Source: Candidatus Parcubacteria bacterium (GTDB taxonomy: Bacteria; Patescibacteriota; Minisyncoccia; UBA6257; 2-01-FULL-56-20). Taken from it: a stretch of 64,000 nucleotides of DNA. Where the stretch lies: contig DAHVRZ010000002.1 in the NCBI GenBank assembly GCA_027324805.1, positions 85,658 to 149,657 on the forward strand, written 5' to 3'. The notes beneath the pieces were generated by a model. That model saw only the letters and a list, made by a program, of their open reading frames with translations. It made no database searches and was not told the origin of the DNA. This document shows positions 1 through 41,308 of the stretch, piece after piece. The number at the start of each line of letters is the position of its first letter. Position 1 is the first letter of the stretch. The translations under genes and the position numbers were made by a program.

Positions 1-74
1 CACAATCGGCGATTCTTTTATTTGCGGCGCAAAGAATCCCGCCTTCTCGACACATCCGTAATCATCACATCATC

Positions 75-641
75 ATGGAACAAATCAAAGACAATCAACA
101 CGAATCAAAACGAGAACAGAAAAGTGCCGAGCGACAACGCTCCGCAAGAAAAAGATCATTCAACAGGTCGGCGAAGCGCGCGCTGATCATCCTCTTCGTC
201 GCCGTGGGCATATGGGGGTTATGGTACTGGGGTAGCAGCAATTCCTCTCCACAGACAACCCGGGCGCTGGCATTTTCCTGCACGACCGATACGCTCACGA
301 CATTCCACATCCATCCGCATCTCGTGATCACGATCAACGGCCAGGATCAGCAGATCCCGGCGGGGATCGGCAACAGCATCACATGCCTGCACCCAATCCA
401 TACCCACGATACCAGCGGGATGATCCATGTCGAATCGCCGTCGCCCCGCGATTTCACACTCGCCGATTTCTTCGCAGTTTGGGGCAAAACATTCAATCAC
501 AATCAAATTCTCAATTCCGTAGCAGATGCGAGCCATACGATCACGATGACCGTGAACGGCGTTCCGAGCCAGGACTTCGAAGACCTTGTTTTGCGCGACA
601 AAGACCAGATCGTTATTGCCTACGGCCCGACAAAACCATAA
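75..641 (+). CDS. Membrane-anchored hypothetical protein with His-rich motifs (HIHPH, HPIHTHD)
   Basis: ORF of 188 aa with a single N-terminal TM segment and HxHxH-type motifs. It is the first gene of a + strand unit that continues into the DsbA-like gene. No family recognised. Confidence 0.5.
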   Translation: MEQIKDNQHESKREQKSAERQRSARKRSFNRSAKRALIILFVAVGIWGLWYWGSSNSSPQTTRALAFSCTTDTLTTFHIHPHLVITINGQDQQIPAGIGNSITCLHPIHTHDTSGMIHVESPSPRDFTLADFFAVWGKTFNHNQILNSVADASHTITMTVNGVPSQDFEDLVLRDKDQIVIAYGPTKP

Positions 642-664
642 AATAAATAATATTCTTCAAAACC

Positions 665-1414
665 ATGGAACATCACGACACGCACCACGATGAGGCACAA
701 GAACTTTCTCCCGCCGCTCGCCATCGGCCTATAAATGATCGTTTTCTCCCGATCTCCATTCTTGTCGCGGCAATTTTGATCGGGGGAACGATACTTTTTG
801 CAACGCTCTACCGAGGAGGCAGCGTTGCTCCTGCTGGCGCAGCCCAAGCGGCCGTCCCGCCAATAAGCGCCGCTGACGCCGTATTGGGCAACCCGAACGC
901 CCCAGTCACACTCATAGAATACGGCGATTACCAGTGCCCGTTCTGCGGGAGGTTCTTCTCGGAAGCCCAGCCGCAGATTGTGAAAGACTATGTGGATACA
1001 GGAAAGGTAAAAATGGTTTTCCGTAATTTCGCTTTTCTCGGATCGGAATCCGTTGCGGCCGCAGAAGCTGCGGATTGTGCGGGAGACCAGAATAAATTAT
1101 GGGCGTACCACGATGCGCTCTACGCCGGAAAAGTGGCCGATTTCGCGAAAGGCGGCGGCGAGGATGATGGGTTCTTTAATAGGACGTTGTTCCTGAAGAT
1201 TGCCCAGCAAATAAACCTTAACATCCCGACATTCACGAGCTGCATCGATAGCAATAAATATGCAAATCGGGTCGCACAGGAAAAAACGGACGCGGCGGCA
1301 ATCGGCGTGAATTCAACGCCAACCGTCTTTATCAACGGGCAAGAAGTGCTCGGCGCCCAGCCCTATGCGGCATTCAAAACAGTGATCGACCTTGCATTGC
1401 AAAACAGTAAATAA
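665..1414 (+). CDS. DsbA-family thiol:disulfide oxidoreductase (thioredoxin fold, CPFC active site), membrane-anchored
   Basis: The YQCPFCGRFF CxxC motif sits in a DsbA-like context after an N-terminal TM helix. The 249-aa length is typical. Confidence 0.8.
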   Translation: MEHHDTHHDEAQELSPAARHRPINDRFLPISILVAAILIGGTILFATLYRGGSVAPAGAAQAAVPPISAADAVLGNPNAPVTLIEYGDYQCPFCGRFFSEAQPQIVKDYVDTGKVKMVFRNFAFLGSESVAAAEAADCAGDQNKLWAYHDALYAGKVADFAKGGGEDDGFFNRTLFLKIAQQINLNIPTFTSCIDSNKYANRVAQEKTDAAAIGVNSTPTVFINGQEVLGAQPYAAFKTVIDLALQNSK

Positions 1415-1416
1415 CC

Positions 1417-1992
1417 ATGGATGCCGCGCAGAAAAAATCACAAATGGGCGTTTGGAAAGGATTGCGCTACGTATTTGCGAAGATCGGCTATCTCGTTATC
1501 GCATCCATCGCAGCGGCGCTTGCGTTCGCCTTCGCAGTCTGGCTGCCGAATCTTCACCTCGTTGCGAGCACGCTCACACGATCCGACGCGCCTCTTATGT
1601 TGCGGCTGCAACTCCCGGTAACCCTTCTCGGCTCCATCGTCACGAATTTTAGCCCGTTTTCGGCAACTATGATCGTTACCCTCTCCATGCTTCTTGGGAT
1701 TGATACGGCACTCGTCGCATATCACACAAAGCAAAGGCTTGCAGGGAATTTCACTGGCGGCTTTGCCGCCGGAGCGGGTGGCATAGTCGCCGGAGTTCTC
1801 GGCATCGGATGCGCCGCATGCGGCTCCATTGTCGCCATGTCGTTCCTGCCCCTCGTGGGCGGCGCGGGGATTCTTGCGGCATTGCCACTCGGAGGAGGAG
1901 AGTTTGGTGTTCTCGGGATAATCCTTCTTGGCAGTTCTATCGCTATCCTCGCAAAAAAAGCGACGCAACCGCTCATTTGCGTCGAAGCGTAG
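1417..1992 (+). CDS. Polytopic membrane protein with intramembrane CAAC (CxxC) motif; candidate redox partner of the upstream DsbA-like protein
   Basis: The 191-aa ORF has 4-5 predicted TM helices with GIGCAACGS in one helix, and starts 3 nt after the dsbA-like stop. It matches neither DsbB nor VKOR by motif pattern. Confidence 0.55.
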   Translation: MDAAQKKSQMGVWKGLRYVFAKIGYLVIASIAAALAFAFAVWLPNLHLVASTLTRSDAPLMLRLQLPVTLLGSIVTNFSPFSATMIVTLSMLLGIDTALVAYHTKQRLAGNFTGGFAAGAGGIVAGVLGIGCAACGSIVAMSFLPLVGGAGILAALPLGGGEFGVLGIILLGSSIAILAKKATQPLICVEA

Positions 1993-2011
1993 ATGCGTAG
2001 ATGCCGCTCAA

Positions 2012-2401
2012 TTATGAAATGACCGTATCAACAACCCTTTTGAGCTTGTCTTCCACCGTGCTCGCAATATCGCCGAGCGCAGGATTATCCACCATACCCA
2101 TCGCAACCGTCGGCAGGATGGCGGACACGAACACGTTTCCTTTTTCCTCATAGACGACCACATTGCACGGAAGAAGTAAACCGATATCCTTCTCCGCCTG
2201 TAACGCCTTGAACGCGAACTGCGGATTGCACGCACCGAGTATGACGTAATTGTCGTACTCGACGTCCAATTTCTTTTTGAGCGTCGCTTTGACGTCGATT
2301 TCCGTTAATACGCCGAACCCTTCCCTCGCCAATGCATCCTTGGTCTTTTGAACCGCCTCGCCGAAGGAGATGGGGTATCGTTTTTTATAGCCGTAATTCA
2401 T
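2012..2401 (-). CDS. DUF302 family protein
   Basis: Reading from the internal start MNYGYKKRYPISFGEAV gives about 130 aa, typical for DUF302. The track's longer N-terminal extension runs into promoter sequence. Confidence 0.7.
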   Translation of the reverse strand: MNYGYKKRYPISFGEAVQKTKDALAREGFGVLTEIDVKATLKKKLDVEYDNYVILGACNPQFAFKALQAEKDIGLLLPCNVVVYEEKGNVFVSAILPTVAMGMVDNPALGDIASTVEDKLKRVVDTVIS

Positions 2402-2440
2402 GATTACATTATACCCCCTGTGGGTATTTCTGCAAAGCAG
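2402..2440 (-). promoter_or_regulatory. Sigma70-like promoter (TTGCAG-N16-TATAAT) with CsoR-type palindrome ATACCC-CCTGT-GGGTAT (2411..2427) overlapping the spacer and -10; near-leaderless start of DUF302 gene
   Basis: The minus-strand sequence reads TTTGCAGAAATACCCACAGGGGGTATAATGTAATC-ATG. The palindrome has the same arms as the two csoR-region operators. The -10 lies 6 nt from the ATG. Confidence 0.55.
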
Positions 2441-2453
2441 CCCGCAGAGCATA

Positions 2454-3752
2454 TCAGCTACTTATCACCACTCTCGCTACGCTATAAATCTCTTTCAGCG
2501 AATAGTGGGATGTAAAACTGATATTGTTCCCGTTCGCTACATAGGGATCTTGCATGAGATAATTGCCTTTACTCCCGCTCGTGAGGACGACGAAGTGCGT
2601 TCCGCCGAGGGCGTTCATGCCGATAATTATCGGGTGGCCAGCGGCAAGCATCGCGTCAATGACGGTGATCTTGCGCGCGGTGGTCGCTCCCCTCACGCTC
2701 GTGGCTTTCCGCGTGACGGTGACGCCATCCACGCCGATCGTCGCGAGTAGCAAGTCGGGAGAATACGCGGCAAAATTATCCGGGTCCGCATTGATGGTTG
2801 CGGGTGTCACATCCTTATATCCGTAATGCGTGAGCACCATCGCCACAGACGCGATAAGACAACCGGCGCTTGCAAGGGTATATTTCGTTCCATCGAGTGC
2901 ATTGCTCCCCCACGCCGTATCGCGCTGATTATAGTAACAGCCCGATGCGTCGCAGCTCGTTTGGTTCGCGAGCAGCTTTGAACCACCGGCATTCTGGGTG
3001 AAGGTCGAGAAGCTGTTGAGCTCCGCCTGCGCCGCCGCGAGCAGTTTCTGATATGTTGATTCCTGTGATTTTGTTTCTACAAGCAGCTGGCTTTTTGATT
3101 GCTCCGTCACGGCGAGTGATTGTTGTTGCGATGCTAGTGTCTGTTTTTGAAATGTCAGCGTTTCCTGTTTTTGCTTTGATGCAGCCTGTGAATCGGCAAG
3201 GTCGCCTTCCTGCACGCGCAACGTCTGCATTTGATCCTGAACAGCATTCTGCATCTTCAACGTCGCGTTGACGTCATTCCACATCGCAACAAGACTGCCT
3301 GATGAAAGCATCTGCACGATAAGTGGTTTGTCATCAGCTTTCTGAAGGCTTCGCAGATATCCTCCGAGCGCTGCCTGATCCGTATCGATCGTTTGCTTCG
3401 CCATAGTTATCGCCCCGCCCAATTGCTGGATTTGCGCCTGGGTGGTATTGATCTGCAACTGGGTAAGGGCGACCTGCGCCTGCACCTTACTACGCTCAAG
3501 ATCGAGCGCATTAATGGCGGCTTGGAGCGTCTTCTTGTCCGCACCGACTTTCTGAAGCTGCGCCTGGTATGTCGCGATCTCTTGATTAAGAGCGGCAATT
3601 TGCTGATTGTCCGTGCTAATCTGTTGCGCCTGCGTGGAAGTACTGCTCGTACTCGTTGCAGAGGCGATTGCCGCCGCATGGGAAATAGAAATACCCCACA
3701 CGGCTACGGCCATGAGAAATCCAAACCAAATAAAAAGAGATGGCCCACGCAT
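2454..3752 (-). CDS. Secreted coiled-coil protein with C-terminal papain-like C39-type (Peptidase_C39_2-like) cysteine peptidase domain; PcsB-like architecture
   Basis: Signal peptide, then about 250 aa of Q/A/L-rich coiled coil. The C-terminal domain carries SAGCLIASVAMVLTHYGY (catalytic Cys context) and GGTHFVVL (His). Confidence 0.65.
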   Translation of the reverse strand: MRGPSLFIWFGFLMAVAVWGISISHAAAIASATSTSSTSTQAQQISTDNQQIAALNQEIATYQAQLQKVGADKKTLQAAINALDLERSKVQAQVALTQLQINTTQAQIQQLGGAITMAKQTIDTDQAALGGYLRSLQKADDKPLIVQMLSSGSLVAMWNDVNATLKMQNAVQDQMQTLRVQEGDLADSQAASKQKQETLTFQKQTLASQQQSLAVTEQSKSQLLVETKSQESTYQKLLAAAQAELNSFSTFTQNAGGSKLLANQTSCDASGCYYNQRDTAWGSNALDGTKYTLASAGCLIASVAMVLTHYGYKDVTPATINADPDNFAAYSPDLLLATIGVDGVTVTRKATSVRGATTARKITVIDAMLAAGHPIIIGMNALGGTHFVVLTSGSKGNYLMQDPYVANGNNISFTSHYSLKEIYSVARVVISS

Positions 3753-3764
3753 GTTTGTTAACCG

Positions 3765-3941
3765 TTAGCAGCATCCGCCACCTTTTGATTTACGAGGTTG
3801 CTCTTTCTTAGTTAACAGCAGCCGATATTGATCCTTGCATCTCTCGGAATAGAATTGCTTGCCAAATCCTTTTGGATATTCTTGTCCATCTTTGAACTCC
3901 ATCCTGCAGATGGGACACTTTTTCTTGAAAATTTTGAACAT
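3765..3941 (-). CDS. Small Lys-rich zinc-ribbon-like protein (58 aa) ending in GGGCC
   Basis: This is the internal-ATG ORF MFKIFKKKCPICRMEF...GGGCC*. It is AT-rich with atypical codon usage and is wedged between the ICMT-like and PcsB-like genes. Weak support. Confidence 0.3.
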   Translation of the reverse strand: MFKIFKKKCPICRMEFKDGQEYPKGFGKQFYSERCKDQYRLLLTKKEQPRKSKGGGCC

Positions 3942-3955
3942 GTGTTTTTGATATT

Positions 3956-4490
3956 TTATTTCACTGATTTGTCTTTTCGCCTCCACCGCGGAATGAACGC
4001 GGGCGTTTGCGCCGCATAAGCATCCCATTCTCTGCCAAATGCCGCTTGCGCTTCCCTCTCTTCGGTTCGCGCGAGATGCACGTACATCCACAAAAGCACC
4101 GGAAACATGGCAAGCGTGAGAATGGTCGGCCACTGGAACAAGAATCCGAGCATAACGAGTATGAATGCCACGTATTGTGGATGGCGAATGCGGGCATACG
4201 GCCCTGCGGTTGCAAGCGTATGTTCTTTCTGCGCTTTATAGAGGACAGTCCATGCGTCCATTAAGAGGAATATCCCTATGCCGATCAGGATGTAGCTCAG
4301 AATATGGAACGGCCCGAAGTGTGAGCGGAAAACCATACATCTCAGTGAATAACGCGACGATGAATGCGGAGAATGCGCCGAACGATCGCCAATCGCGCGG
4401 CGTCTTCGGTTTTGTGAAGCTGAACGCGAACACGATGAAGATTGCGGAATTGATGATGACGAGCGGCCAGAGGCCATAACTGTTGTCCAT
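3956..4490 (-). pseudogene. Isoprenylcysteine carboxyl methyltransferase (ICMT)/phospholipid methyltransferase family gene split by a frameshift near 4311..4320
   Basis: The N-terminal part is ORF 4236..4490 (WRSFGAFSAFIVALFTEMYGFPLT). The C-terminal part is in another frame within 3956..4501 (GPYARIRHPQYVAFILVMLGFLF, the ICMT signature). The two frames share the DNA around ggcccg at 4311..4316. This is either a real pseudogene or a one-base sequencing indel. Confidence 0.6.
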
Positions 4491-4491
4491 A

Positions 4492-4815
4492 TCAGTGACA
4501 AGAGGAATGATCGTGTTTCATATCATGATGAGTTTCGGCCTTTGAGGATTGCTCATCGTCCGTAATGTGATTATCGTGCAGTACCTCATTGTGCGGCGGT
4601 TTCCGATGCCGCATCATCATGATGACGCACGCCACGAGAAGCACGAAAGCTATGAGCGGTAGGAATAATGCTGCTCCGCCGAACGCCGCGACACCGCCGC
4701 CCAAAAATAGGATGGCGAGAATCGGCACGGCGCAACAGGCGACCATCATCCACATCATTGAGGAGCCGTGGCCACCCTCATGATTGTGGTCACTATTGTT
4801 ACTTTGGTTGTCCAT
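4492..4815 (-). CDS. His-rich small membrane protein (2 TM), possible metal-binding
   Basis: The N-terminus is SDHNHEGGHGS and the C-terminus is HHDMKHDHSSCH, with hydrophobic helices between. The gene sits 1 nt upstream of the ICMT-like gene. Confidence 0.55.
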   Translation of the reverse strand: MDNQSNNSDHNHEGGHGSSMMWMMVACCAVPILAILFLGGGVAAFGGAALFLPLIAFVLLVACVIMMMRHRKPPHNEVLHDNHITDDEQSSKAETHHDMKHDHSSCH

Positions 4816-4847
4816 AGTTTAGTTTGATTAATTTCTTTACCAGACTT

Positions 4848-5321
4848 TTACTGCATGTTCCACGTGAACGTCCTCACTGCTACCCCACCGACGTTGCTTA
4901 CCGTGAGCGTTATCGTCTTTGGCGTCGACGATGGCGCAGGGAACGTAAGCGTGCCGTTGCGATGATGCCCACCTACAGCAGGGCCATCCCATGCGATGGA
5001 TGCAAGTGAGTCGCCACGATCATCGGTCAGTACGGCAACTTTCGTCATATCCATATCGAGACTGCCCATGTGGGTATCGATCCCAAAGTTGAACGTCCAC
5101 GTGCTTGTGCCGGGCGCGAGCGGCTGTGCGATGACTTCCGCCGTACCCTCGGAATTGGTCTGTGATTCGTAAGGCGACGATGCCGTGCCGGGTGCCTGCT
5201 GCGTTTGGCTTGCCGCTCCTCCATATTCCGTAGGCGTGCCCCTCGGTACGCTCAAAGCGTAGAGAAAAAACATCCCGGCAAGGACGGCAAGCCCAATAAG
5301 AGCGATGTTGATTTTCTTCAT
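4848..5321 (-). CDS. Secreted hypothetical protein with Met/His-rich patch (THMGSLDMDM, GGHH)
   Basis: Signal peptide at MKKINIALIGLAVLAGMFF. The motifs loosely resemble CopC-like Met-rich Cu(I) sites, but this is not diagnostic. Confidence 0.5.
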   Translation of the reverse strand: MKKINIALIGLAVLAGMFFLYALSVPRGTPTEYGGAASQTQQAPGTASSPYESQTNSEGTAEVIAQPLAPGTSTWTFNFGIDTHMGSLDMDMTKVAVLTDDRGDSLASIAWDGPAVGGHHRNGTLTFPAPSSTPKTITLTVSNVGGVAVRTFTWNMQ

Positions 5322-5761
5322 ATTGTGCGATGTTTGAATTTCATGATCCGACTGATCATATATGCGATGCCCACGAGGTTGAACGCGATCCCGACCCAGA
5401 AAAGCTGTACTTGGTATGCCCCAATGAATGACGCGAACGCACTCACCCCGAGAACCGGCAAGATGTTCACGAGATAATGGGCGCAGCAGGAGATCATCGC
5501 GCCCGTGGACGTTGTTCCTGTCACGGCAAGCATTTTCCCGCTCGGATCCTTGGTGTGAATCTCGGCCTTCAGATAGCTGTACAACCCGATCTGGATGCCA
5601 AACCCAACCGCGAGACTTCCGAGATAGTACCAGTAACTTGAGAACTGGCTCGCGGCAAATCCAACGCCGGAGATGAGACCGACGACCAGGAAATATGCGC
5701 CGACCAAAGCTAGCGTTGCGGCTGCTCCCTTCGCGATCGATGTGATGACGGTGCGGTTCAT
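5318..5761 (-). CDS. 4-TM membrane protein with CCAHY motif
   Basis: ORF of 147 aa that overlaps the downstream gene by 4 nt. No family recognised. Confidence 0.5.
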   Translation of the reverse strand: MNRTVITSIAKGAAATLALVGAYFLVVGLISGVGFAASQFSSYWYYLGSLAVGFGIQIGLYSYLKAEIHTKDPSGKMLAVTGTTSTGAMISCCAHYLVNILPVLGVSAFASFIGAYQVQLFWVGIAFNLVGIAYMISRIMKFKHRTI

Positions 5762-5762
5762 G

Positions 5763-6389
5763 TTAATTCATCTGCGCGAGTTCGCCCGCGATCTTGTCGT
5801 TGTCGATACCCATGTTTGGGTCGTCGAAGACATAGCGGACGATGCCCTGCTTGTCGATAAGGACGAACGTGTGGCCCGGGTACGAACCGTAATGCATGGA
5901 TGAGTTAACGGTAAGCATGCCGTACTCGTTCGATACGCTTTTGTCTGTGTCAAAGAGTACGGTTGCCGAGGCGAGCTGTGGCATCTTCTGGATCGCGCTT
6001 TGCCAATCCGACGGCTGATCGATCACCACCGAAAGCGCGACGGTATTCGAGCTATTGAGCTGCGGGAGTGCCACCATCTGATTCCAGCACGCCGGGTAGC
6101 ACATGATACCTTCGTTGAAGAACAGCACCACATCTTCCCCCTTCAGACTGTCATTCGTGTACGTCGTGCCGTTCCGGTCTTGAAGCGAGAATTGCGGGGC
6201 TGGTTTGCCGACGAGGTCGTTAGGCGATCCCACCGAAGCGGCTGCGCTCCCCGAATGCATGGGGTCGCCGCCCGCCTGTGGACTGCCGCTTCCGCGACTC
6301 AGCATGTAGATGCCGCCGATAACGAATGCCGCGATAGCGATGATCGCCACAATGGCGGTCACATTAGATTTTTTCTGATAGTTTTTCAT
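5763..6389 (-). CDS. TlpA/ResA-like thiol-disulfide oxidoreductase (redoxin, thioredoxin fold), membrane-anchored
   Basis: The VGKPAPQFSLQDRNG...VVLFFNEGIMCYPACWNQ motif places a CxxxC-type redox site in an AhpC/TSA-redoxin context. The start was moved to the internal MKNYQKK. Confidence 0.75.
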   Translation of the reverse strand: MKNYQKKSNVTAIVAIIAIAAFVIGGIYMLSRGSGSPQAGGDPMHSGSAAASVGSPNDLVGKPAPQFSLQDRNGTTYTNDSLKGEDVVLFFNEGIMCYPACWNQMVALPQLNSSNTVALSVVIDQPSDWQSAIQKMPQLASATVLFDTDKSVSNEYGMLTVNSSMHYGSYPGHTFVLIDKQGIVRYVFDDPNMGIDNDKIAGELAQMN

Positions 6390-6396
6390 GTTGGTT

Positions 6397-7257
6397 TTAT
6401 TTTTCTTTGTTTTGTTTAATTGCCATGGCCGTAAACCAGGCGAGAAGCCCAACGATCACAATCGCCCACACGAACTGCGGCACCCAGCCGATGAAGCGGT
6501 TGAGCGATTGCAAAATTTGCGTAATGAAGATGTCGACATCCACGGCCGTTGCCGAGTATCCCATCGGATTGTTCGCTGCCCATATGAGCGTGAAGGCACC
6601 CATGATGGTGAAGGTAGCTCCCGCTAAGAGGTCAGAGATCCGCGTCTTGAATTCCTTTCCAAACAGGGTGAACGTAAACGGCTTCCGCGCTTCGAAGAGG
6701 CGGTTCGTGAGTTTTGTGCGATCAATGATGGACGCCAAAATGAAGAGTGGCGTCACCATGCCGAGGACGTAGGCCAAGGTGTAGACGATGCCCCATGCGA
6801 AAGAACCCGGAAGCACGGAGAGCGCGAGCGCTCCAGCAAGAACAGGGGCGCAACAGGTCGTCGCGATGCCGGAGAATATGCCGAGGACGTAGACCGATGC
6901 CGCTGTTTCCTTCTCTTTCACTTCAAACTTAGGCTTCCACGATGACGGCATAGGTAATCGCTTCCCGAAAAAAAGTGAGATGCCCAGAGCGAGAAGCAAC
7001 AGACCTACAACCGTAAAGATCTCGTGGTGATAATGCCCGAAGAACGTGCTCAAGGACGAGAATCCCAGCCCGAGCGGCAAGAATATGGTCAGGATGCCGA
7101 GGAAGAAGATAAACGTCATGAGAAATACCTTCCGCCGCGTCTCAAAGATTGAGCCGAAATAGGAGGGCAGAAGAACGGTCACGCAGCAGGGCGCAAAAAG
7201 GGCAGCGATTCCCGCCACGAATGCCGCTATGAGTGATGTGCTGATGAGGAGTTCCAT
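6397..7257 (-). CDS. ccdA: CcdA/DsbD-family transmembrane thiol-disulfide electron transporter
   Basis: Polytopic membrane protein with FAPCCVTVLLP and TTCCAPVLAGAL motifs, the DsbD_2/CcdA-like Cys-in-TM pattern. It is adjacent to the redoxin gene. Confidence 0.7.
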   Translation of the reverse strand: MELLISTSLIAAFVAGIAALFAPCCVTVLLPSYFGSIFETRRKVFLMTFIFFLGILTIFLPLGLGFSSLSTFFGHYHHEIFTVVGLLLLALGISLFFGKRLPMPSSWKPKFEVKEKETAASVYVLGIFSGIATTCCAPVLAGALALSVLPGSFAWGIVYTLAYVLGMVTPLFILASIIDRTKLTNRLFEARKPFTFTLFGKEFKTRISDLLAGATFTIMGAFTLIWAANNPMGYSATAVDVDIFITQILQSLNRFIGWVPQFVWAIVIVGLLAWFTAMAIKQNKEK

Positions 7258-7262
7258 GGTCG

Positions 7263-7463
7263 TTATTGCAACCCACAACCGCTAGGCTGACCGTAGGATG
7301 GGGCTTGGTTTTGCGCTTGCGACGATGGCGCGGCAATCTGATTTTCCTGGGTTACCGCGTTAGCACCGAATGGCCGGAACGCATAGGCCCACGCCGTACC
7401 GACGATGATCACGAAGAGCGCACTACTGATGAACAGCCAGAAATTGTCATTGGTTGGTTTCAT
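7263..7463 (-). CDS. Small membrane-anchored protein ending in C-terminal ...SGCGLQ
   Basis: ORF of 66 aa with an N-terminal TM and a Q/A/S-rich tail. The C-terminal motif is shared with the upstream gene. Confidence 0.45.
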   Translation of the reverse strand: MKPTNDNFWLFISSALFVIIVGTAWAYAFRPFGANAVTQENQIAAPSSQAQNQAPSYGQPSGCGLQ

Positions 7464-7478
7464 GTTTTTTATTTCCGG

Positions 7479-8474
7479 TCATTGCACCCCGCAGCCGCCC
7501 GACGATTGCGTCTGCACCGGAGTGATTTTGTTTTCTATCTGCTGATACCCTTGCGCACTCGAATACGCGGCGCCGAGGACCGCCTTCGGATCCACCGCAC
7601 TCCAGTCTATGCCCTGGCTTTGGAAGTAGGTCGCGAGGGTCATATAGGTATCCGGGAACCAGTAGGAATTCACCGCGAGCGCGGCTTTATACATGTCCGT
7701 TTCCGAGACGCCCTGCGACGCCATGAGCTCGAGGAGGGCGAGCATTGCCATGCCGTGATTGCAGTCCGGGAAGTACGTAGAGTTGCCGCAACACGGGCGA
7801 TAGATATTCTGTGCAACGCGAACGACGAGCGCCTGCTGATCGGCCGTGAGCGTTATGAATTGATGTGCGCTATAGTGCGTCATCGCATCGCCGACCGAAA
7901 GCGTCCATCCGCCAGTCGAAGCAAAGTTCTTCGCGCTGCCGTATTGCGGATTTTGCATCGGACCGCTTGTGAGGATCGGATTGTTATTCCCAAGCCCAAG
8001 CGCCCATAGAAGATTCAGGATGACGCCGGAATTCTGTGGCGTGATGACGAGATCGCTGTTGTCCGTATTATCGAGAAGCGCTTGCATGTCGGGCGACAAC
8101 CCGCCACGCCGTGCGTACAATGCCTCAAATTGCGGCTCGTCGATTACGCCGCTGGAAACCAACTGCTTCCCCAGGTCGCCCCAACGTGCGGGCAACGTCA
8201 CGCCCACCGCCGGGATCACTTTTTCCTGAAGCGCAGAAACTGACGCGGTTTGCGTGGTCGTGGCCGAGGATCCTTTCGCCGAAAAAAGATTCTGACCTCC
8301 TGTTGATCTCTGGCTGCCGACATAAACGAACGCCGAAGCGATAAACAGTGCGGCAGCGAGAATACTAAGCGGCAAAAATAGATCTTTCCGGCCATCTTTT
8401 ACCGCTCCTTCCGGGAGAATATCTTCCGCCGGTTCCGATTCGTGATGATGTGGTTCGTGTTCCATATGATTCAT
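7479..8474 (-). CDS. Membrane-anchored His/Cys-rich protein (N-term HEPHHHE; RPCCGNSTYFPDCNHG) ending in ...SGGCGVQ
   Basis: ORF of 331 aa with a single TM. No family recognised; C-terminal Cys-x-x-x motif. Confidence 0.55.
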   Translation of the reverse strand: MNHMEHEPHHHESEPAEDILPEGAVKDGRKDLFLPLSILAAALFIASAFVYVGSQRSTGGQNLFSAKGSSATTTQTASVSALQEKVIPAVGVTLPARWGDLGKQLVSSGVIDEPQFEALYARRGGLSPDMQALLDNTDNSDLVITPQNSGVILNLLWALGLGNNNPILTSGPMQNPQYGSAKNFASTGGWTLSVGDAMTHYSAHQFITLTADQQALVVRVAQNIYRPCCGNSTYFPDCNHGMAMLALLELMASQGVSETDMYKAALAVNSYWFPDTYMTLATYFQSQGIDWSAVDPKAVLGAAYSSAQGYQQIENKITPVQTQSSGGCGVQ

Positions 8475-8477
8475 GCG

Positions 8478-8969
8478 TTATTCGTCGCAGCACGCGGCGA
8501 GTTTATTGACAAGCTCTTCGAATTGCGAGCTGCCTCTTGCTTCGTCTTTTATTTTCCGACCCGTAACTAGTTTCAATTTCAGCGCCCAAAAGATTGAATA
8601 TACCTTGTAGGCACCCTCAAATGTCTGCTTCGCACGCTGCTTCTCGCCTTCCGACTGCAACTTATTGCCAACCTCGATAAGGCGCATAGTCGTCGCAAGG
8701 AGGTGTTTTGCGATACACCACGTCTCGCCTTCATTTTCCGGCATCAACTGCGCGAGAAATTGTTTGCGTAACTCCCTGATCTCCTGCGCCGTATCGAAAT
8801 ACTCGTCTTTTTTTGTTTTTACACCGGTAAAAACAAAGTGTTCTTCGAGGCTCACGAGATTCATGACGGCAATGCTCAGATCTTCCGTCGTTGAAAGATC
8901 GACGCCCGCTTTCGCCTTGACCGATTCTATTCTTTTGAGGAACTCTTCCAGTGTTGGTTTTGTATTCAT
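8478..8969 (-). CDS. Hypothetical soluble protein (163 aa) ending AACCDE
   Basis: ORF in the tight minus-strand gene string, with no TM. Function unknown. Confidence 0.5.
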   Translation of the reverse strand: MNTKPTLEEFLKRIESVKAKAGVDLSTTEDLSIAVMNLVSLEEHFVFTGVKTKKDEYFDTAQEIRELRKQFLAQLMPENEGETWCIAKHLLATTMRLIEVGNKLQSEGEKQRAKQTFEGAYKVYSIFWALKLKLVTGRKIKDEARGSSQFEELVNKLAACCDE

Positions 8970-9054
8970 GGTAGTTTAATGGAATGATTGCGCACCAAAA
9001 AACCGCATTCCTGCGGTTTATGGCGCTACGAACGACACGGCGAATCTGGTTCGC

Positions 9055-9468
9055 TTAGGCGTTCATAGCGCAAAATAACGACGGATCACGCTTTTCAAGG
9101 AGAGATATCCAGCGATGCTGTTTACGGATGCCGTTCGCCTTCCCTTCGGTAACGATACCCAACCGGCGTTGTGTTATAAATGGCAGATCTGCGACGACAG
9201 AGACTGTAAGCCACGCGAAAACTGCCAATAAAGCCAAAAATGTAAAAGCTAATGAACTTACAATGCCGAGCGATGCCCCAAGGAGCGCGTTGATATGTAT
9301 TGTCGCGAATTGGAATGGGTTCATGCCGTTCACGCATTGCTGGCTCCCGGGAATCGCCGCGAGGCAATTCGCATGATTGCCCGCTCCCATATTGGCCATC
9401 GCAAAGCCGCCCGCCACGAGGGCAAGGACGGCTGTTAGGATGACCATGGTTGCGAGCGCCGATTTCAT
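9055..9468 (-). CDS. Membrane protein with extracytoplasmic Cys pair (HANCLAAIPGSQQC)
   Basis: ORF of 137 aa with a signal/TM segment and an internal TM. It lies directly downstream of csoR. Confidence 0.5.
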   Translation of the reverse strand: MKSALATMVILTAVLALVAGGFAMANMGAGNHANCLAAIPGSQQCVNGMNPFQFATIHINALLGASLGIVSSLAFTFLALLAVFAWLTVSVVADLPFITQRRLGIVTEGKANGIRKQHRWISLLEKRDPSLFCAMNA

Positions 9469-9469
9469 G

Positions 9470-9739
9470 CTATCTTCGTTGTGATAATTTATACACTTTC
9501 AAGATCTCGTCAGCGGCCTTTTTACCATGTCCTGCTTTCATCTGCATCGCTACGTGGGTAGCAAGATGATTCTCAAGGAGCAAGCCCTCAATGCCGGAAA
9601 GCGCCTGCTTGATAGCGGACGACTGCGTAATAACGTCAATACAGTACTTTTCCTCATCGATCATCTTTTCCAGGCCCTTGATCTGGCCTTTTACGATCTG
9701 TAATCGCCGCAGGGCTTTTTTCTTAATAACCTTATTCAT
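9470..9739 (-). CDS. csoR: CsoR/RcnR/FrmR-family (DUF156) metal-sensing transcriptional repressor
   Basis: ALRRLQIVKGQIKGLEKMIDEEKYCIDVITQSSAIKQALSGIEGLLLENHLATHV is a very close match to the family helix bundle. The sensory positions read Y-C ... H-x3-H. The start was placed at the internal MNKVIKKK, giving 89 aa. Confidence 0.8.
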   Translation of the reverse strand: MNKVIKKKALRRLQIVKGQIKGLEKMIDEEKYCIDVITQSSAIKQALSGIEGLLLENHLATHVAMQMKAGHGKKAADEILKVYKLSQRR

Positions 9740-9745
9740 ATCTTC

Positions 9746-9774
9746 ATGATACCCCTCTAGGGTATAAGTGTCAA
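9746..9774 (-). promoter_or_regulatory. Promoter of csoR operon: TTGACA-N17-TATCAT with operator palindrome ATACCC-CTCTA-GGGTAT (about 9749..9765) in the spacer; csoR ATG 6 nt after -10 (leaderless)
   Basis: The minus-strand sequence reads TTGACACTTATACCCTAGAGGGGTATCATGAAGAT-ATG. Coordinates are +/-1 nt. Confidence 0.6.
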
Positions 9775-9800
9775 ATAAACCATCCATAATGATATCCATT

Positions 9801-9813
9801 CCCTATGGTAGGG
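9801..9813. promoter_or_regulatory. Short palindrome CCCTA-TGG-TAGGG between the divergent promoters
   Basis: Seen directly in the intergenic sequence. Possibly an additional half-operator. Confidence 0.3.
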
Positions 9814-9841
9814 TTGACAACATACCCCTGCGGGGTATCAT
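9814..9841 (+). promoter_or_regulatory. Promoter of gene 9905..10246: TTGACA-N16-TATCAT with operator palindrome ATACCCC-TGC-GGGGTAT (9822..9838) in the spacer
   Basis: The sequence reads gggTTGACAacATACCCCTGCGGGGTATCATgg. It is divergent from and architecturally identical to the csoR promoter. Confidence 0.6.
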
Positions 9842-9904
9842 GGAGAGGTAAACGTATTGTGGATACATCAATAATAAAGGTCGTCAACGCAAAAGCAATT
9901 CATT

Positions 9905-10246
9905 ATGGAAGAACATACGCACGAATACGGTCATCACATATTGCTTCGCTGGGTACTCGGCATTCTTATTTTGGTCGTGGTCTTTTGGATGGGCGTCCAA
10001 GTGGGCGAGTTCAGAACCGCCTTCGGATACAGCTACGGAATGTGGCCGGGCATGATGGGGAATAATTACTACGGTGCCACTCCTTATCCTTATGGCTATC
10101 CGATGATGGGAGGATATTATTATGGAGGCCAGACTGCGGGTCCGTCCCAATCTACGACAACCACCGCGCCGACTTACTATTACGGCCCTGGCGGTATGAT
10201 GCAGGGGTATTATCAGAACGCACCACAAACGACCAGCGCAAAGTAG
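9905..10246 (+). CDS. Small membrane protein with His-rich N-terminus (EEHTHEYGHH) and Gly/Tyr/Met/Pro-rich low-complexity C-terminal tail
   Basis: ORF of 113 aa with one TM. The tail reads YGMWPGMMGNNYYG...YPMMGGYYYGG...GGMMQGYY. It is transcribed divergently from csoR from an operator-bearing promoter. Confidence 0.55.
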   Translation: MEEHTHEYGHHILLRWVLGILILVVVFWMGVQVGEFRTAFGYSYGMWPGMMGNNYYGATPYPYGYPMMGGYYYGGQTAGPSQSTTTTAPTYYYGPGGMMQGYYQNAPQTTSAK

Positions 10247-10315
10247 CCAGCGATAAAAGAAACCGTACCGGACATTTTATCCGATACCCGCTATGCTTAT
10301 ATCTGGGCGGCAAGC

Positions 10316-10344
10316 AAAAATCCCGCGATGAGCGGGCATTTTTG
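10316..10344. terminator. Bidirectional Rho-independent terminator (A5-TCCCGCGATGAGCGGGCA-T5)
   Basis: A hairpin at 10322..10336 is flanked by A- and T-tracts. It lies between the convergent genes 9905..10246 (+) and 10354..10581 (-). Confidence 0.55.
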
Positions 10345-10353
10345 TTCCTAATT

Positions 10354-10569
10354 TTATTCAATTCCCATCTTATCCAAGATGTGCGCCTCGATTTGGCGTA
10401 TCCGTTCCCTCGTAACTCCGAACGCCCTGCCGGTCTCTTCAAGGGTTCTCGATCGTCCGTCCGCAATGCCGAACCGCAACTCGAAAATCTGCATCTCCCG
10501 CGGGGTTAATTTCAGGACCTTCTTCATAGCCTTATATCGTTCAATGACGGCATCACGATCCCGTTTCAT
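10354..10569 (-). CDS. Stand-alone sigma-70 region 4 (HTH) domain protein, ~71 aa
   Basis: [48 protein letters not shown] is a classic sigma region 4.2 HTH. No regions 2 or 3 are present. A TATAAT at 10580..10585 overlaps the first ATG, so the mRNA is probably leaderless and starts at the second ATG (MKRDRD). Confidence 0.6.
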
Positions 10570-10597
10570 ATTGTTTATCATTATAGATTTATTTTAA

Positions 10598-10648
10598 AAA
10601 TTGGCTACTTTCTAACTACATCCAATAGCATCCGAAAGTAGCCAATTT
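10598..10648 (-). terminator. 15-bp perfect inverted repeat AAATTGGCTACTTTC / GAAAGTAGCCAATTT (21-nt spacer) overlapping the dcm stop codon, followed by T-run; terminator or protein-binding site
   Basis: Seen directly in the sequence. The large loop is atypical for an intrinsic terminator. Confidence 0.35.
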
Positions 10649-11636
10649 ATCCGCCAACGTCCCGTATCGCTCTCATCACTTCCGCCGCCACCTGCGGCAC
10701 AATGGCATTGCCCAAGGCTTTGATTCGCTCTACTCGGTGCTGTTTTACGGTGAGCTCGCATCCGTCCAGCCGGGCGGGAAGCCCATCATCCACTCGACAA
10801 AGATCGGTTGCAGCTTCAAGCCAGTCCGACCCTGCACCACCTCGCCAAAATTTGATTTTCCCCGGTCCGTATAGGAAGCCCTGCTGTCCTGCGCTTTGGG
10901 CGTAGGCAGGATTTCGTAGAGCCGCGGCAATATTTGCCCGAGCCGCGCGCCGTGCCGATCGCCAGTCCTCTTTGACTGCCGGAAAAATTGTCCGTTCCCG
11001 TAATGAACGGTCTTCGTGTATTCCGCGCCAACAACCTCGCTTGCGACCGGCGTGGGAAGCATCGTGGGCAACGATCCAGACCCGATCCCTCCGGTGCGGG
11101 GCTTCGACGGCACAAGCTGGAATAACAAACGATTGGACTTCGTAGTTTTGATCTTCCAGGTCAGATAGCACTTGGTCGAGCGCCAGGTTGATGATGCCAG
11201 CAACGTTCTCGCCAATGATCCAATGGGGCCGCGTTTCTTTGATAACTCTGAGCATTTCAGGCCAGAGATAACGGTCATCCAGTTTGCCTCGGCGCTTTCC
11301 GGCGAAACTGAAAGGCTGGCAAGGAAAGCCACCCGTGAGGAGGTCAAGTTGATAGCCTGCGGCAAGTTTATGCTGTGCTTGCTCCCCTTTTTCATTTGAG
11401 AGCTTTTGAGATTCGGTGTGAAGCTGTCCGACGCTGTGGGCGTCGGCAACAAGTCGTTCGATTGATAACTCCCTGATGTCATTGTAGATTTTCGCATGTT
11501 TGAAATTCTTTTTTATTATTGCTTGGCAGAATTTGTTGTTATCACAGAATCCGACGTTCTCATACTTGTCGCCCCACACCCATTGCGCGGCGAGTGCAAA
11601 TCCGCCGATGCCGGAAAAAAGATCGAGGTGTTTCAT
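10647..11636 (-). CDS. dcm: DNA (cytosine-5)-methyltransferase
   Basis: C5-MTase motifs are present: DLFSGIGG (I), GGFPCQPFS (IV), ENV (VI) and LGNAIVPQV (X). The 329-aa length is typical. No restriction endonuclease or Vsr gene is nearby. Confidence 0.85.
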   Translation of the reverse strand: MKHLDLFSGIGGFALAAQWVWGDKYENVGFCDNNKFCQAIIKKNFKHAKIYNDIRELSIERLVADAHSVGQLHTESQKLSNEKGEQAQHKLAAGYQLDLLTGGFPCQPFSFAGKRRGKLDDRYLWPEMLRVIKETRPHWIIGENVAGIINLALDQVLSDLEDQNYEVQSFVIPACAVEAPHRRDRVWIVAHDASHAGRKRGCWRGIHEDRSLRERTIFPAVKEDWRSARRAARANIAAALRNPAYAQSAGQQGFLYGPGKIKFWRGGAGSDWLEAATDLCRVDDGLPARLDGCELTVKQHRVERIKALGNAIVPQVAAEVMRAIRDVGG

Positions 11637-13845: not shown

Positions 13846-13885
13846 GGTTGTGTTAATTGGTTTATATTTGCGACCTTTATTTTTC

Positions 13886-14011
13886 TCATAGCCAGATGTC
13901 AATGAAAGTGAAGAAGAACGCGTGCAGCGTCGTCGCTGCGAACAGGAGCAAAATCCACGAGGGATTCACCACCTGCGACCACGCGAGGAATATTTGATCG
14001 AGCGGCTGCAT
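13886..14011 (-). CDS. Tiny membrane peptide (41 aa) MQPLDQIFLAWSQVVNPSWILLLFAATTLHAFFFTFIDIWL
   Basis: Hand-translated, since it falls below the track's length cutoff. Its start overlaps the upstream stop (TGATG). Confidence 0.35.
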   Translation of the reverse strand: MQPLDQIFLAWSQVVNPSWILLLFAATTLHAFFFTFIDIWL

Positions 14012-14166
14012 CAGTGATTGAACCCGTCATTTTTGACCACGACCTTGAGCCACTTGTCTCCCGTGATACCGAGGAATATCCCCACCACGCCGTCAACGAG
14101 CGCCACGATGCAGAAATCGAGGGCGAACGTGAGCAGGATAAGTGCGATGAAATACTGGAAGGTCAT
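14011..14166 (-). CDS. Tiny membrane peptide (51 aa) MTFQYFIALILLTFALDFCIVALVDGVVGIFLGITGDKWLKVVVKNDGFNH
   Basis: Hand-translated. Its start overlaps the upstream stop with an ATGA overlap at 14163..14166. Confidence 0.4.
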   Translation of the reverse strand: MTFQYFIALILLTFALDFCIVALVDGVVGIFLGITGDKWLKVVVKNDGFNH

Positions 14167-14327
14167 GCGGGTTGAATATGGTTATGGTCGTCGTCAATCG
14201 GCTCGTAGTGATAATCGTCATCTCCGTCATCGTCGGCATTTTCGTCAACCGACCAGATGAGCGCGAACATGACGAGCATGAGAGAAAGCGCGCCGGACCA
14301 GAAGCCGTTGAAAAAATCCCAATTCAT
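14163..14327 (-). CDS. Small membrane peptide (54 aa) with acidic/His tail (MNWDFFNGFWSGALSLMLVMFALIWSVDENADDDGDDDYHYEPIDDDHNHIQPA)
   Basis: Track ORF 14163..14348, trimmed to the internal ATG that forms an ATGA overlap with the upstream peptide's stop. Confidence 0.45.
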   Translation of the reverse strand: MNWDFFNGFWSGALSLMLVMFALIWSVDENADDDGDDDYHYEPIDDDHNHIQPA

Positions 14328-14467
14328 TTTCCAAGTAATTTTTGCCACCAGGACTTTTTCGGCGGGACGTAGAATCCCATCGGGCGCGGCGGGCGCTTGA
14401 GCGCCGCGAGGCGCTTTGCGAGCCAGTACAAGATGACGAAACCGATGATGGTAAGGATAGGTGTCAT
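14324..14467 (-). CDS. Tiny membrane peptide (47 aa) MTPILTIIGFVILYWLAKRLAALKRPPRPMGFYVPPKKSWWQKLLGK
   Basis: Hand-translated. It starts 9 nt after the stop of the Cys-rich peptide. Confidence 0.4.
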   Translation of the reverse strand: MTPILTIIGFVILYWLAKRLAALKRPPRPMGFYVPPKKSWWQKLLGK

Positions 14468-14476
14468 GGTGGTGAT

Positions 14477-14743: not shown

Positions 14744-14852
14744 AGGGGCAAATATAAATACAGACTACACAGAAAGGAAGACGAGGAACTACAGAAAAAC
14801 GAGGAAGGGGCAAATCTTAATTAATTAAGAAATTAATTATATATTTGCCCCT
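14744..14852. repeat. Three AGGGGCAAAT boxes: direct at 14744..14753 and 14806..14815, inverted at 14843..14852 (next to a candidate -10 TATAAT at 14836..14841 on the minus strand)
   Basis: Seen directly in the sequence. The pattern is iteron or operator-like, in an AT-rich stretch of about 270 bp. Confidence 0.55.
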
Positions 14853-14870
14853 ATACAAGATAAAGAAAAA

Positions 14871-14900
14871 TCCGCCTGATATGGACAGGCGGATTTTCTT
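14871..14900 (-). terminator. Rho-independent terminator (TCCGCCTG-loop-CAGGCGGA + T-tract) after the winged-helix regulator gene
   Basis: An 8-bp GC-rich stem with a T-tract on the minus strand. It has an A-tract on the other side and may work in both directions. Confidence 0.6.
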
Positions 14901-14911
14901 GGAGCGTACCG

Positions 14912-15223
14912 TTAAAACTTGATCCGGTAGTAGGTCGCCTTCTTGAAAAAGCCTGATCCTTTTTTTGGATCTTTGAAGGTCGTTGTCCATTGCTGCAAAA
15001 ATCCTTTTTTGACGAGGATATTTTTTGCGATTCGGGCACCTTTGTAACTCATCCCAAGTTTCAATGCTATTTTCTGGAGCTCGACAATTTTTGGCACGCG
15101 GATGTTACCGATCTCCTCGACGAACGCCTGGTATACGCGCGTTTGCCTATCCGTGAGCCGCCGCAGTAGCACGGATCGCGTGGCCGCGCTCGACACTTCG
15201 CCGAGAGGGATAAATCCTTCCAT
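14912..15223 (-). CDS. Winged-helix transcriptional regulator (TrmB/MarR-like wHTH), 103 aa
   Basis: LTDRQTRVYQAFVEE...IVELQKIALKLGMSYKGARIAKNILVKKGFL matches the wHTH pattern. The gene lies between the rplK terminator and the leader of the peptide/pilin operon. Confidence 0.5.
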   Translation of the reverse strand: MEGFIPLGEVSSAATRSVLLRRLTDRQTRVYQAFVEEIGNIRVPKIVELQKIALKLGMSYKGARIAKNILVKKGFLQQWTTTFKDPKKGSGFFKKATYYRIKF

Positions 15224-15408
15224 GATTTTTTGGCGTTATCGCCCTTGCACACGCACGACAAAGGATGGGGATCAGCTCCCCCTCTCTGCCGAAGTGATAA
15301 ATCTTGCGACACCGACGATCGCATCGCGCGCATGTTTCCCAACGGGAAAATCGTTTTCTGTCCTTTTGCATCTCATAGGGGCGATTATTTTTCCGACCTT
15401 TGGATGCA

Positions 15409-38797: not shown

Positions 38798-41308
<2,511 letters not shown>

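Follow-up and report, generated by a model that had tools for sequence, protein, structure and literature searches.

The stretch of DNA analysed here, 64,000 nt from a Candidatus Parcubacteria bacterium (contig DAHVRZ010000002.1; hereafter the window), carries a minus-strand string of about 14 densely packed genes, from position 9739 to 2012, with a CsoR-family repressor gene at its head. All coordinates are window positions unless a contig name (Lnnn) is given. Our analysis suggests, with a probability that we would put at about 65%, that this region forms the accessory arm of a copper-stress island under CsoR control, in which efflux would be joined to a CcdA-fed envelope module that handles thiols and Cu(I). 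The in silico observations behind this reading are a regulon architecture with four operator-promoters, an exporter in the regulon, linkage to pumps and to CcdA, and conserved Cys/His motifs on both faces of the membrane. An initial annotation of the window had regarded the string as an unusual, pump-less CsoR regulon. This did not hold, since the regulon contains a canonical copper exporter and in several relatives the string ends in an ATPase. These comparisons point instead to a canonical CsoR-pump regulon whose accessory set is lineage-specific and unusually large.

No P-type ATPase could be detected in the 64 kb (Pfam on the large open reading frames, ORFs; tblastn best E 0.35), and to this extent the initial annotation, which had reported neither pump nor chaperone, was right. 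However, both a CopB-type ATPase and a small HMBD protein lie just beyond the left edge, under the same CsoR box. The DsbA protein of the window, used as a query, was found on 22 public contigs, and the three contigs that were read are 99.98–100% identical to the left end of the window. L085 3942–15172 corresponds to window 1–11231 with 100% identity, and L084 9337–20750 corresponds to window 1–11414 with 99.98% identity. Leftward from the window, L084 and L085 both carry four genes and then the pump, in the order of a 138-aa gene, a membrane protein with a Lycopene_cyc domain, a 64-aa Cys-rich protein, a 55-aa HMBD protein (HMBD55) and a 739-aa HMBD/E1-E2 ATPase (L085 82–2340), which ends 1641 bp before window position 1. 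This ATPase contains the motifs ACPHALGLA (CPH), GYNVFAIP (GYN(x)4P), MSASS and DKTGT, two HMBD motifs and His-rich stretches. The motif set of P1B-3 (CopB-type) pumps is thus present, and by the established P1B classification we take it to denote the CopB/P1B-3 copper type. HMBD55, which adjoins the pump, is of the zinc-ribbon type (PF19335, 1.9e-13) and has the tail GGCCG; both genes lie 1.6–1.9 kb left of window position 1. The ATPase operon begins with the Lycopene_cyc-domain protein (PF18916, 7e-17) and the 64-aa protein (YCCLECG...CEAWCGEHRSC), whose genes occupy L085 2511–2705 and 2711–3421; in the close relative L003, a Lycopene_cyc-domain gene also stands in front of the ATPase. No HMA (ferredoxin-fold, MxCxxC; CopZ-type) match was found in any island protein. 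The proposed search for CopA or CopZ elsewhere yielded a CopB-type ATPase on identical contigs but no HMA CopZ in the island. Judging from these alignments, the apparent absence of pump and chaperone is a window-edge artefact, and the puzzle of a pump-less regulon vanishes because near-identical contigs place a CopB-type ATPase 1.6 kb off the window.

Analysis of the putative operators revealed that the palindrome ATACCCC-N3-GGGGTAT occurs at three sites in the window, where 0.10 would be expected by chance. In L084 it occurs at four sites (0.03 expected), of which three are those of the window and the fourth is a perfect site at the ATPase promoter. The published CsoR box of Corynebacterium glutamicum has the same letters (PMC5057107). 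Each box occupies the spacer of a strong sigma-70-like promoter, and its last TAT begins the −10 hexamer. The perfect box ATACCCCTGCGGGGTAT at 9822–9838 lies within a plus-strand promoter, TTGACA(9814)-16-TATCAT(9841) (11/12), facing the gene GY113, and a box with one mismatch at 9749–9765 fills the spacer of the minus-strand csoR promoter, TTGACA(9774)-17-TATCAT(9746) (11/12). Another box with one mismatch (2411–2427) belongs to the promoter of the DUF302 gene, TTTGCA(2436)-17-TATAAT(2408) (10/12), 6 nt before the DUF302 ATG. The off-window box of the ATPase operon, read on L085, is again perfect and lies in the promoter TTGACA-18-TATATT (11/12). These predicted sites form a GC-rich inverted repeat at the repressor's own promoter and at that of a copper exporter, as is typical of CsoR-type operators. 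The positions of promoter and box also support the csoR start at 9739 that was originally chosen, and the csoR mRNA is probably leaderless, because its ATG comes only 6 nt after the −10 hexamer. A genome scan with P331, the signature gene of the island, gave 80 distinct Patescibacteria loci, whose ORFs were classified by phmmer against the window proteins. Of these 80 related loci, 25 contain the box; it precedes csoR at 21 sites, the ATPase at 10 and DUF302 at two (L034 and L043). GY113 (9905–10246, plus strand) encodes 113 aa with a His-rich N-terminus (MEEHTHEYGHH), one transmembrane (TM) segment and a low-complexity Gly/Tyr/Met/Pro-rich outside tail, and matched no Pfam family. Its position after a strong promoter with a perfect CsoR box makes GY113 a probable additional member of the regulon.

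The repressor itself (csoR, 9470–9739, minus strand; 89 aa, ORF open up to 9799) belongs to the CsoR/RcnR family, as had been annotated (PF02583, 7.7e-23 and 4.1e-23). Its nearest solved relatives are the copper CsoRs of M. tuberculosis, Geobacillus, Streptomyces and Thermus (2HH7, 4M1P, 4ADZ and 3AAI; E 1e-13 to 4e-11). The ligand triad is C-H-H (C33, H58, H62), with Cys and His at the positions of M. tuberculosis C36 and H61 and His at that of C65, so the strict x-C-H-C fingerprint of Cu(I)-sensing CsoR (M. tuberculosis C36, H61, C65) is not present. Among 37 CsoRs in sister islands, 28 have CHH and nine have CHC. Both triads occur in the sister islands and therefore both serve the same gene set. 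The CsoR of T. thermophilus is likewise C-H-H; it represses a cop operon in a copper-responsive manner and responds to several metals. It (3AAI) aligned with the window CsoR over residues 4–84 (E 3.7e-11). However, the additional N-terminal His (H5) reported for it is not evident in the window CsoR if the start is at 9739, and the content of its regulon differs. An RcnR/Ni-Co regulon was rejected, as operator and pumps are of the copper type, and so was a CstR persulfide sensor, as there is no second Cys and the metal-ligand His is kept. Copper is the metal suggested by the predicted operator, by the logic of the regulon and by the type of pump, perhaps along with silver or other soft metals.

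In the string, csoR is followed after 1 nt by TM137 (9055–9468), a 2-TM protein whose outward loop has conserved C35, C45 and H58. Then come the cytosolic S163 (8478–8969), in which H44, W84-C85, H89 and the C-terminal pair C160-C161 (CCDE) are invariant; P331 (7479–8474; 331 aa); and TM66 (7263–7463), a TM-anchored peptide which is kept in the closest relatives only and whose C-terminal GCGLQ resembles the P331 tail. The next genes encode a CcdA-type thiol-disulfide transporter (6397–7257; PF02683, DsbD_TM, 9.5e-13) and a membrane-anchored thioredoxin-fold redoxin (5763–6389) with C-YPA-C (CxxxC) and conserved His166 and His173. They are followed by TM147 (5318–5761), a polytopic membrane protein with an invariant C92-C93-x-H95 in a TM helix, and by Sec157 (4848–5321), with an N-terminal anchor, an Ig-like beta-sandwich and invariant H84 and GGHHR (H119, H120). 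The string continues with His107 (4492–4815), which is His-rich, spans the membrane twice and has a CC pair in TM1; an ICMT-family membrane methyltransferase (3956–4501; PF04140, 1.2e-9); a 58-aa Cys-rich protein (3765–3941; CPIC...C...C, tail GGGCC); a coiled-coil protein with a Peptidase_C39_2 domain by Pfam (2454–3752); and, as the last gene, DUF302 (2012–2401; PF03625, 2.4e-25), which has its own CsoR-box promoter. All are on the minus strand, and DUF302 is followed at 1961–1984 by a hairpin and T-run that resemble a terminator.

The ten genes of the initial annotation are thus real and all on the minus strand (as ORFs, with Pfam support for the repressor, CcdA, redoxin and ICMT), and the motifs quoted there, HEPHHHE...RPCCGNSTYFPDCNHG, CCAHY and a CC tail, are present. 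Its description of the products as thiol-redox and Cys/His-rich envelope proteins, encoded in one compact string, was also correct. Its list had overlooked the 58-aa gene (MFKIFKKKCPICRMEF...GGGCC) between ICMT and peptidase, which the L085 and L086 records annotate as a gene. The suspected continuation of the string is borne out, as it reaches the C39-like peptidase and goes further to DUF302 and the hairpin. The peptidase, present in just two of the 80 related loci, is probably a co-transcribed passenger. Junctions had been given as gaps of 1–15 nt or overlaps of 4 nt; most are indeed overlaps or 1–15-nt gaps, but 85 nt separate TM137 from S163 and 32 nt separate Sec157 from His107. No terminator-like site was found in the intergenic gaps of the string, and an Rfam scan of 1–10600 detected no RNA family. 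Pfam supports five products, namely the repressor (7.7e-23), CcdA, the redoxin, ICMT and DUF302. Six of the ten products originally described, and most of the additional ones, matched no Pfam or NCBIfam family.

Comparison of the 80 loci showed a copper-type ATPase in 53, on the same strand in 51 and within 3 kb in 44; among the 23 loci of at least 18 kb, it was present in 20. Window-type CcdA was found in 26 of the 80 and a divergent CcdA-like protein of 259 aa (HPC and FPC motifs) in 40, so that one or the other occurs in 64 loci and both in just two. A DUF1573 protein with a conserved CxC is present in 52 loci and CsoR in 35. The other partners are more scattered: TM137 in 22/80, S163 in 21/80, TM147 in 17/80, Sec157 in 16/80 (the latter pair always together) and the redoxin in 14/80. 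The linkage of P331 to copper pumps and to a CcdA-type conduit looks obligatory. In L001 the ATPase start overlaps the P331 stop, and in L008, L009, L018 and L062 the whole string ends directly in the ATPase. The order in L008 is DsbA, TM191, CsoR, TM137, S163, P331, CcdA, redoxin, TM147, Sec157, DUF302, His107, ICMT, ATPase; csoR and the ATPase are each preceded by a box. The window shows, on this comparison, one arrangement of a predicted modular, phylum-wide copper island.

The pumps adjoining P331 homologues are of the CPC (19), CPH (14) and CPD (10) types. The CPD transport helix (VIACPDALGLA) was seen in L008, L018, L031, L034, L038, L040, L063, L065, L071 and L080; to our knowledge, this motif does not belong to the described P1B subgroups. 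SHOCT-domain proteins were also observed, between csoR and TM137 in the closest relative (L003 8249–9004) and directly before a TM191-P331 fusion (L087 113–361).

P331 consists of a His-rich cytosolic N-tail, one TM segment and roughly 270 aa of outside domain. There is hardly any variation in the stretch YRPCCGNSTYFPDCNHGMAMLGLLELMA; C228, C229, C238 and H240 (CC-x8-C-x-H) are invariant, as is C328 in the terminal GGCGV. Its AlphaFold2 model is confident (pLDDT 81.5), and neither a fold search with this model nor a profile search gave a neighbour in the PDB. More than 6800 homologues were found, none with a Pfam domain, which form 728 clusters at the 50% identity level; the best 120 are all from Patescibacteria by source name and 53–100% identical. 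S163 has no TM segment and no Pfam family; it has 2807 homologues of about 163 aa, the best 120 of which are 71–100% identical and come from several candidate phyla. Profile searches of S163 and Sec157 against PDB sequences gave nothing. The Sec157 model (AlphaFold2, pLDDT 81) matched generic Ig-like beta-sandwiches alone, with E 6e-3 or worse, none of them copper-related. Overall, the P331, S163, TM137 and TM147/Sec157 families each have thousands of homologues in the Candidate Phyla Radiation (CPR) and no Pfam or PDB relative.

The CcdA of the window matches PF02683 and has Cys in TM1 and TM4. However, where this family has one essential Cys in each of two pseudo-symmetric TM helices, these are conserved vicinal pairs, APCC in TM1 and TTCCAP in TM4, and for this reason we class it as a predicted variant of the CcdA/DsbD_TM transporters. 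The redoxin matches AhpC-TSA (5e-15) and Redoxin (9e-14), and its nearest solved relatives are weak hits to Prx-like, TlpA and DsbE proteins; CYPAC is kept in 15 homologues and is accompanied by conserved His. It had been called TlpA-like. The thioredoxin-type fold family agrees with this, but its motif is CxxxC and not the CxxC active site of TlpA/ResA-type proteins. CxxxC with a conserved His is also seen in Sco/SenC, yet PF02630 was unmatched at E up to 0.1 and ScoI (Blr1131) gave only E 0.37–0.67. The methyltransferase belongs to the ICMT family (PF04140, 1.2e-9; PF04191, 7.3e-8), with an NCBIfam isopcys_mtase match of 1.8e-12 that is below the cut-off of that model. His107 did not match the DUF2933 Pfam model at E up to 0.1; it gave a weak MerE match (E 0.046; 13.7 bits against a cut-off of 80). 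A mer system was rejected, as no Mer family protein was found and this sub-threshold match was the only one.

Vicinal CC dipeptides number nine in the 4364 residues of the island and one in 16657 residues elsewhere in the window (about 34-fold; Fisher p 5.7e-6), while the Cys content of the island itself predicts 1.1. They are spread over eight proteins and lie in the C-terminal tail in four of these.

In the model we propose, where the identity of the metal, the way in which electrons and metal move and the parts played by the individual accessory proteins are all inferred, rising cytosolic Cu(I) would make the C-H-H CsoR leave four predicted operators between −35 and −10. Its release would de-repress the ATPase operon, the long csoR operon, DUF302 and GY113. 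The CopB-type ATPase would expel Cu(I), and the long operon would equip the membrane, on its outer side, with a layer that is reducing and binds Cu(I). CcdA would move cytoplasmic electrons to the anchored CxxxC redoxin here, or to the CxC domains of DUF1573 in other arrangements; the DUF1573 arrangement resembles a split DsbD. The redoxin would pass electrons to the Cys3His/Cys-tail ectodomain of P331 and to its companions, holding their thiols reduced, so that they might capture the exported Cu(I) or transfer it, reverse disulfides whose formation copper has catalysed, or both. The CC-tail cytosolic proteins S163, the 58-aa protein and HMBD55 could serve as CopZ-like buffers or delivery proteins that replace the absent HMA CopZ. 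The envelope metal handling or metal-protected oxidative folding suggested in the initial annotation fits the comparative evidence. A further proposal, which we make only tentatively and regard as rather doubtful, is that P331 and S163, TM137, TM147/Sec157 and the CC-pair CcdA form an unrecognised trans-membrane Cu(I)/thiol relay, a Patescibacteria-wide substitute for CopZ, CusF/CopC and multicopper oxidases. In this relay, P331 would contribute a Cys3His ectodomain of a new fold, with a Cys tail that swings; it would dock on copper P-type ATPases, accept the Cu(I) that they extrude and be recycled by electrons from CcdA.

Several points weigh against the copper-stress reading. The whole case is comparative and motif-based, and the peptidase, ICMT, DUF302 and Sec157 are without a role in the scheme. 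C-H-H sensors can respond to several metals, as T. thermophilus CsoR does. No protein of known function resembles P331 in fold or sequence, and its Cu(I) binding is proposed only from the Cys3His pattern. The CxxxC of the redoxin and the CC pairs of CcdA are atypical for electron transfer and could mean metal binding. The composition is modular, with S163, TM137 and TM147/Sec157 each in just 20–28% of the sampled loci. In this strain, moreover, the pump forms its own transcription unit; about 5.6 kb lie between it and the end of the string, from which it is parted by the peptidase and the oppositely oriented DsbA block.

A self-contained regulon that handles metal in the envelope only, independently of any pump, would account for the lack of an ATPase, CDF transporter or CopZ inside the 64-kb window, and three of the 23 related loci of at least 18 kb have no ATPase within 10 kb. 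However, on the 99.98–100% identical contigs the CopB-type ATPase and the HMBD protein lie 1.6 kb outside the window and share its operator, and in most related loci the pump is on the same strand, which makes such a regulon highly improbable. Some of the string might be unrelated to the function of the rest, with a core of csoR, TM137, S163, P331, CcdA and redoxin and a set of co-oriented passengers. The peptidase is found in 2/80 loci and ICMT and His107 in 7/80 each, an internal promoter stands before DUF302, and there are the gaps of 85 nt and 32 nt. But the intergenic gaps contain no terminator-like site, TM147/Sec157, His107, ICMT and DUF302 occur in the same order in L004, L008 and L018, and ICMT with a small His/Cys membrane protein recurs at the tail of copper ATPase clusters elsewhere (PMC8478169). 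We therefore consider a string that is functional only in part possible, though not the expected outcome.

The same proteins could instead supply copper, P331, the CxxxC redoxin and the Ig-like His proteins passing it to extracytoplasmic enzymes in the manner of Sco or PCuAC during cuproprotein maturation. The Sco-like spacing of CxxxC in the redoxin and its conserved downstream His would suit this, as would one TM191-P331 fusion that lies beside cupredoxin/COX2, PCYCGC and CcmH genes. Nevertheless, CsoR logic turns genes on at high copper, and the partner here is an exporter under like regulation. No cuproenzyme gene was present among the window ORFs and island genes scanned against Pfam, and the redoxin has no significant similarity to Sco (PF02630 unmatched; ScoI/Blr1131 E 0.37 or worse), so copper supply appears unlikely. 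We judge it similarly unlikely that the island responds to a different thiophilic stress (Ag, Hg, Cd, Zn or reactive sulfur species) with its CC-pair membrane proteins as Mer-like carriers. CC pairs in TM helices and in C-terminal tails do recall MerT, MerF and MerA, His107 has its weak MerE match (E 0.046), the Thermus C-H-H CsoR responds to several metals, and DUF302 is often found in sulfur-metabolism contexts. Against this, the island has no MerA, MerR or MerP, the pumps here and in related loci are of copper classes (CPH, CPC) and its operator is the copper CsoR box. The sensor, too, retains the metal-ligand His and is without the second Cys that defines CstR. The copper-stress island remains the reading that we prefer.

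The island shares with the CsoR efflux regulons of B. subtilis (csoR-copZA), M. tuberculosis (cso) and C. glutamicum a PF02583 repressor, autoregulation and control of a copper P-type ATPase promoter, and the operator of the C. glutamicum regulon, ATACCCCnnnGGGGTAT, is identical to the window box. It differs from them in that the triad is C-H-H rather than C-H-C, the N-domains of the CopB-type (CPH) pump are HMBD zinc ribbons, a ferredoxin-fold CopZ is absent, and the csoR operon has about 14 extra genes, mostly of unnamed families. In the Scs system (ScsABCD of Salmonella, Proteus and Caulobacter), a DsbD/CcdA-type conduit induced by copper stress supplies electrons to envelope proteins of the thioredoxin fold, which bind Cu(I) or mend thiols damaged by copper. 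The likeness to Scs is functional, as no sequence relationship was detected beyond DsbD_TM and thioredoxin folds; the host of the island is monoderm, control is by CsoR instead of CpxR, and the main client, P331, has no known fold. In the TlpA-ScoI pair of Bradyrhizobium, the Cys of a copper protein outside the cytoplasm are maintained in reduced form by a membrane-anchored reductant of the thioredoxin fold. The window redoxin has the Cys spacing of Sco (CxxxC) but no significant similarity to it (E 0.37 or worse), and the purpose proposed here is defence at high copper and not oxidase assembly. Scs and TlpA-ScoI are, by this analogy, the closest functional counterparts of the predicted module, whereas membership in those families is unsupported.

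The mer thiol relay passes a soft metal between vicinal Cys pairs (MerP, MerT, MerF and the C-terminal CC of MerA). The island shares with the mer operon the CC pairs in TM helices and flexible C-terminal tails, but has neither Mer proteins nor a reductase. The copA-cupredoxin-DUF2933-ICMT clusters of Alteromonas and other Gammaproteobacteria have at their tail a small His/Cys-rich 2-TM protein followed by ICMT (PMC8478169). His107 and ICMT mirror this pair of DUF2933 and ICMT. The likeness is positional and architectural, since His107 is unmatched by the DUF2933 model, and the regulator there is of the MerR type and not CsoR.

To the left of the string, a plus-strand block (75–1992) of HxH188, DsbA (Thioredoxin_4) and TM191 forms a loosely linked oxidative-folding block. 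HxH188 (75–641) is an anchored outside protein with the His clusters HIHPH...HPIHTHD; it matched no Pfam family and is present in nine of the 80 related loci. TM191 (1417–1992), after DsbA, is a polytopic protein without a Pfam family in which GCAACG is conserved. Among the 150 listed representatives of P331 clusters, about a dozen are proteins of 460–550 aa with the P331 domain at the C-terminus, and the five that were read (P0412, P0415, P0422, P0445 and P0394) are all fusions to an N-terminal polytopic GCPxCG domain. This domain is homologous to TM191 of the window (BLASTP 2e-5 across the motif), which gives a Rosetta-stone link between TM191 and P331. One such TM191-P331 fusion adjoins CcmH/DUF1573, PCYCGC and cupredoxin/COX2 genes and a P-type ATPase. 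TM191 may be a DsbB/VKOR-like or a metal-conducting partner.

The copper island may lie in or beside an integrative element. Paralogous segments with small genes, 78–80% identical, flank it (L084 88–694 and 989–1436; window 13858–14470 and 14787–15232), a phage-type integrase and a Fic protein are encoded just past the ATPase (L084 1884–2756 and 3460–4545), and a C-5 DNA methylase is located at 10647–11636. Immediately beyond GY113, a 75-aa protein (10354–10581, minus strand) consists of sigma-70 region 4 only (PF04545, 1.7e-15). Elsewhere on the minus strand of the window there are an ORF of 2250 aa (17163–23915) and one of 836 aa (38798–41308), in which glucose-6-phosphate dehydrogenase (G6PD_N, G6PD_C) is fused to 6-phosphogluconate dehydrogenase (NAD_binding_2, 6PGD).

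Patescibacteria are abundant, mostly uncultured and ultra-small, and very few of their stress systems have been annotated. No description of the island was found in the literature on Patescibacteria or CPR with copper, CsoR or CcdA. The island shows the classical CsoR/P-type ATPase logic in Patescibacteria, with four to six conserved but unnamed families wired into it. Its regulatory and efflux logic is ordinary. As well-defined candidates, P331, S163 and their partners may include new proteins that bind copper or repair thiols. Naming these families would improve the annotation of thousands of metagenomic genes, and their biochemistry could show how a monoderm cell without a periplasm shields its surface thiols from copper.

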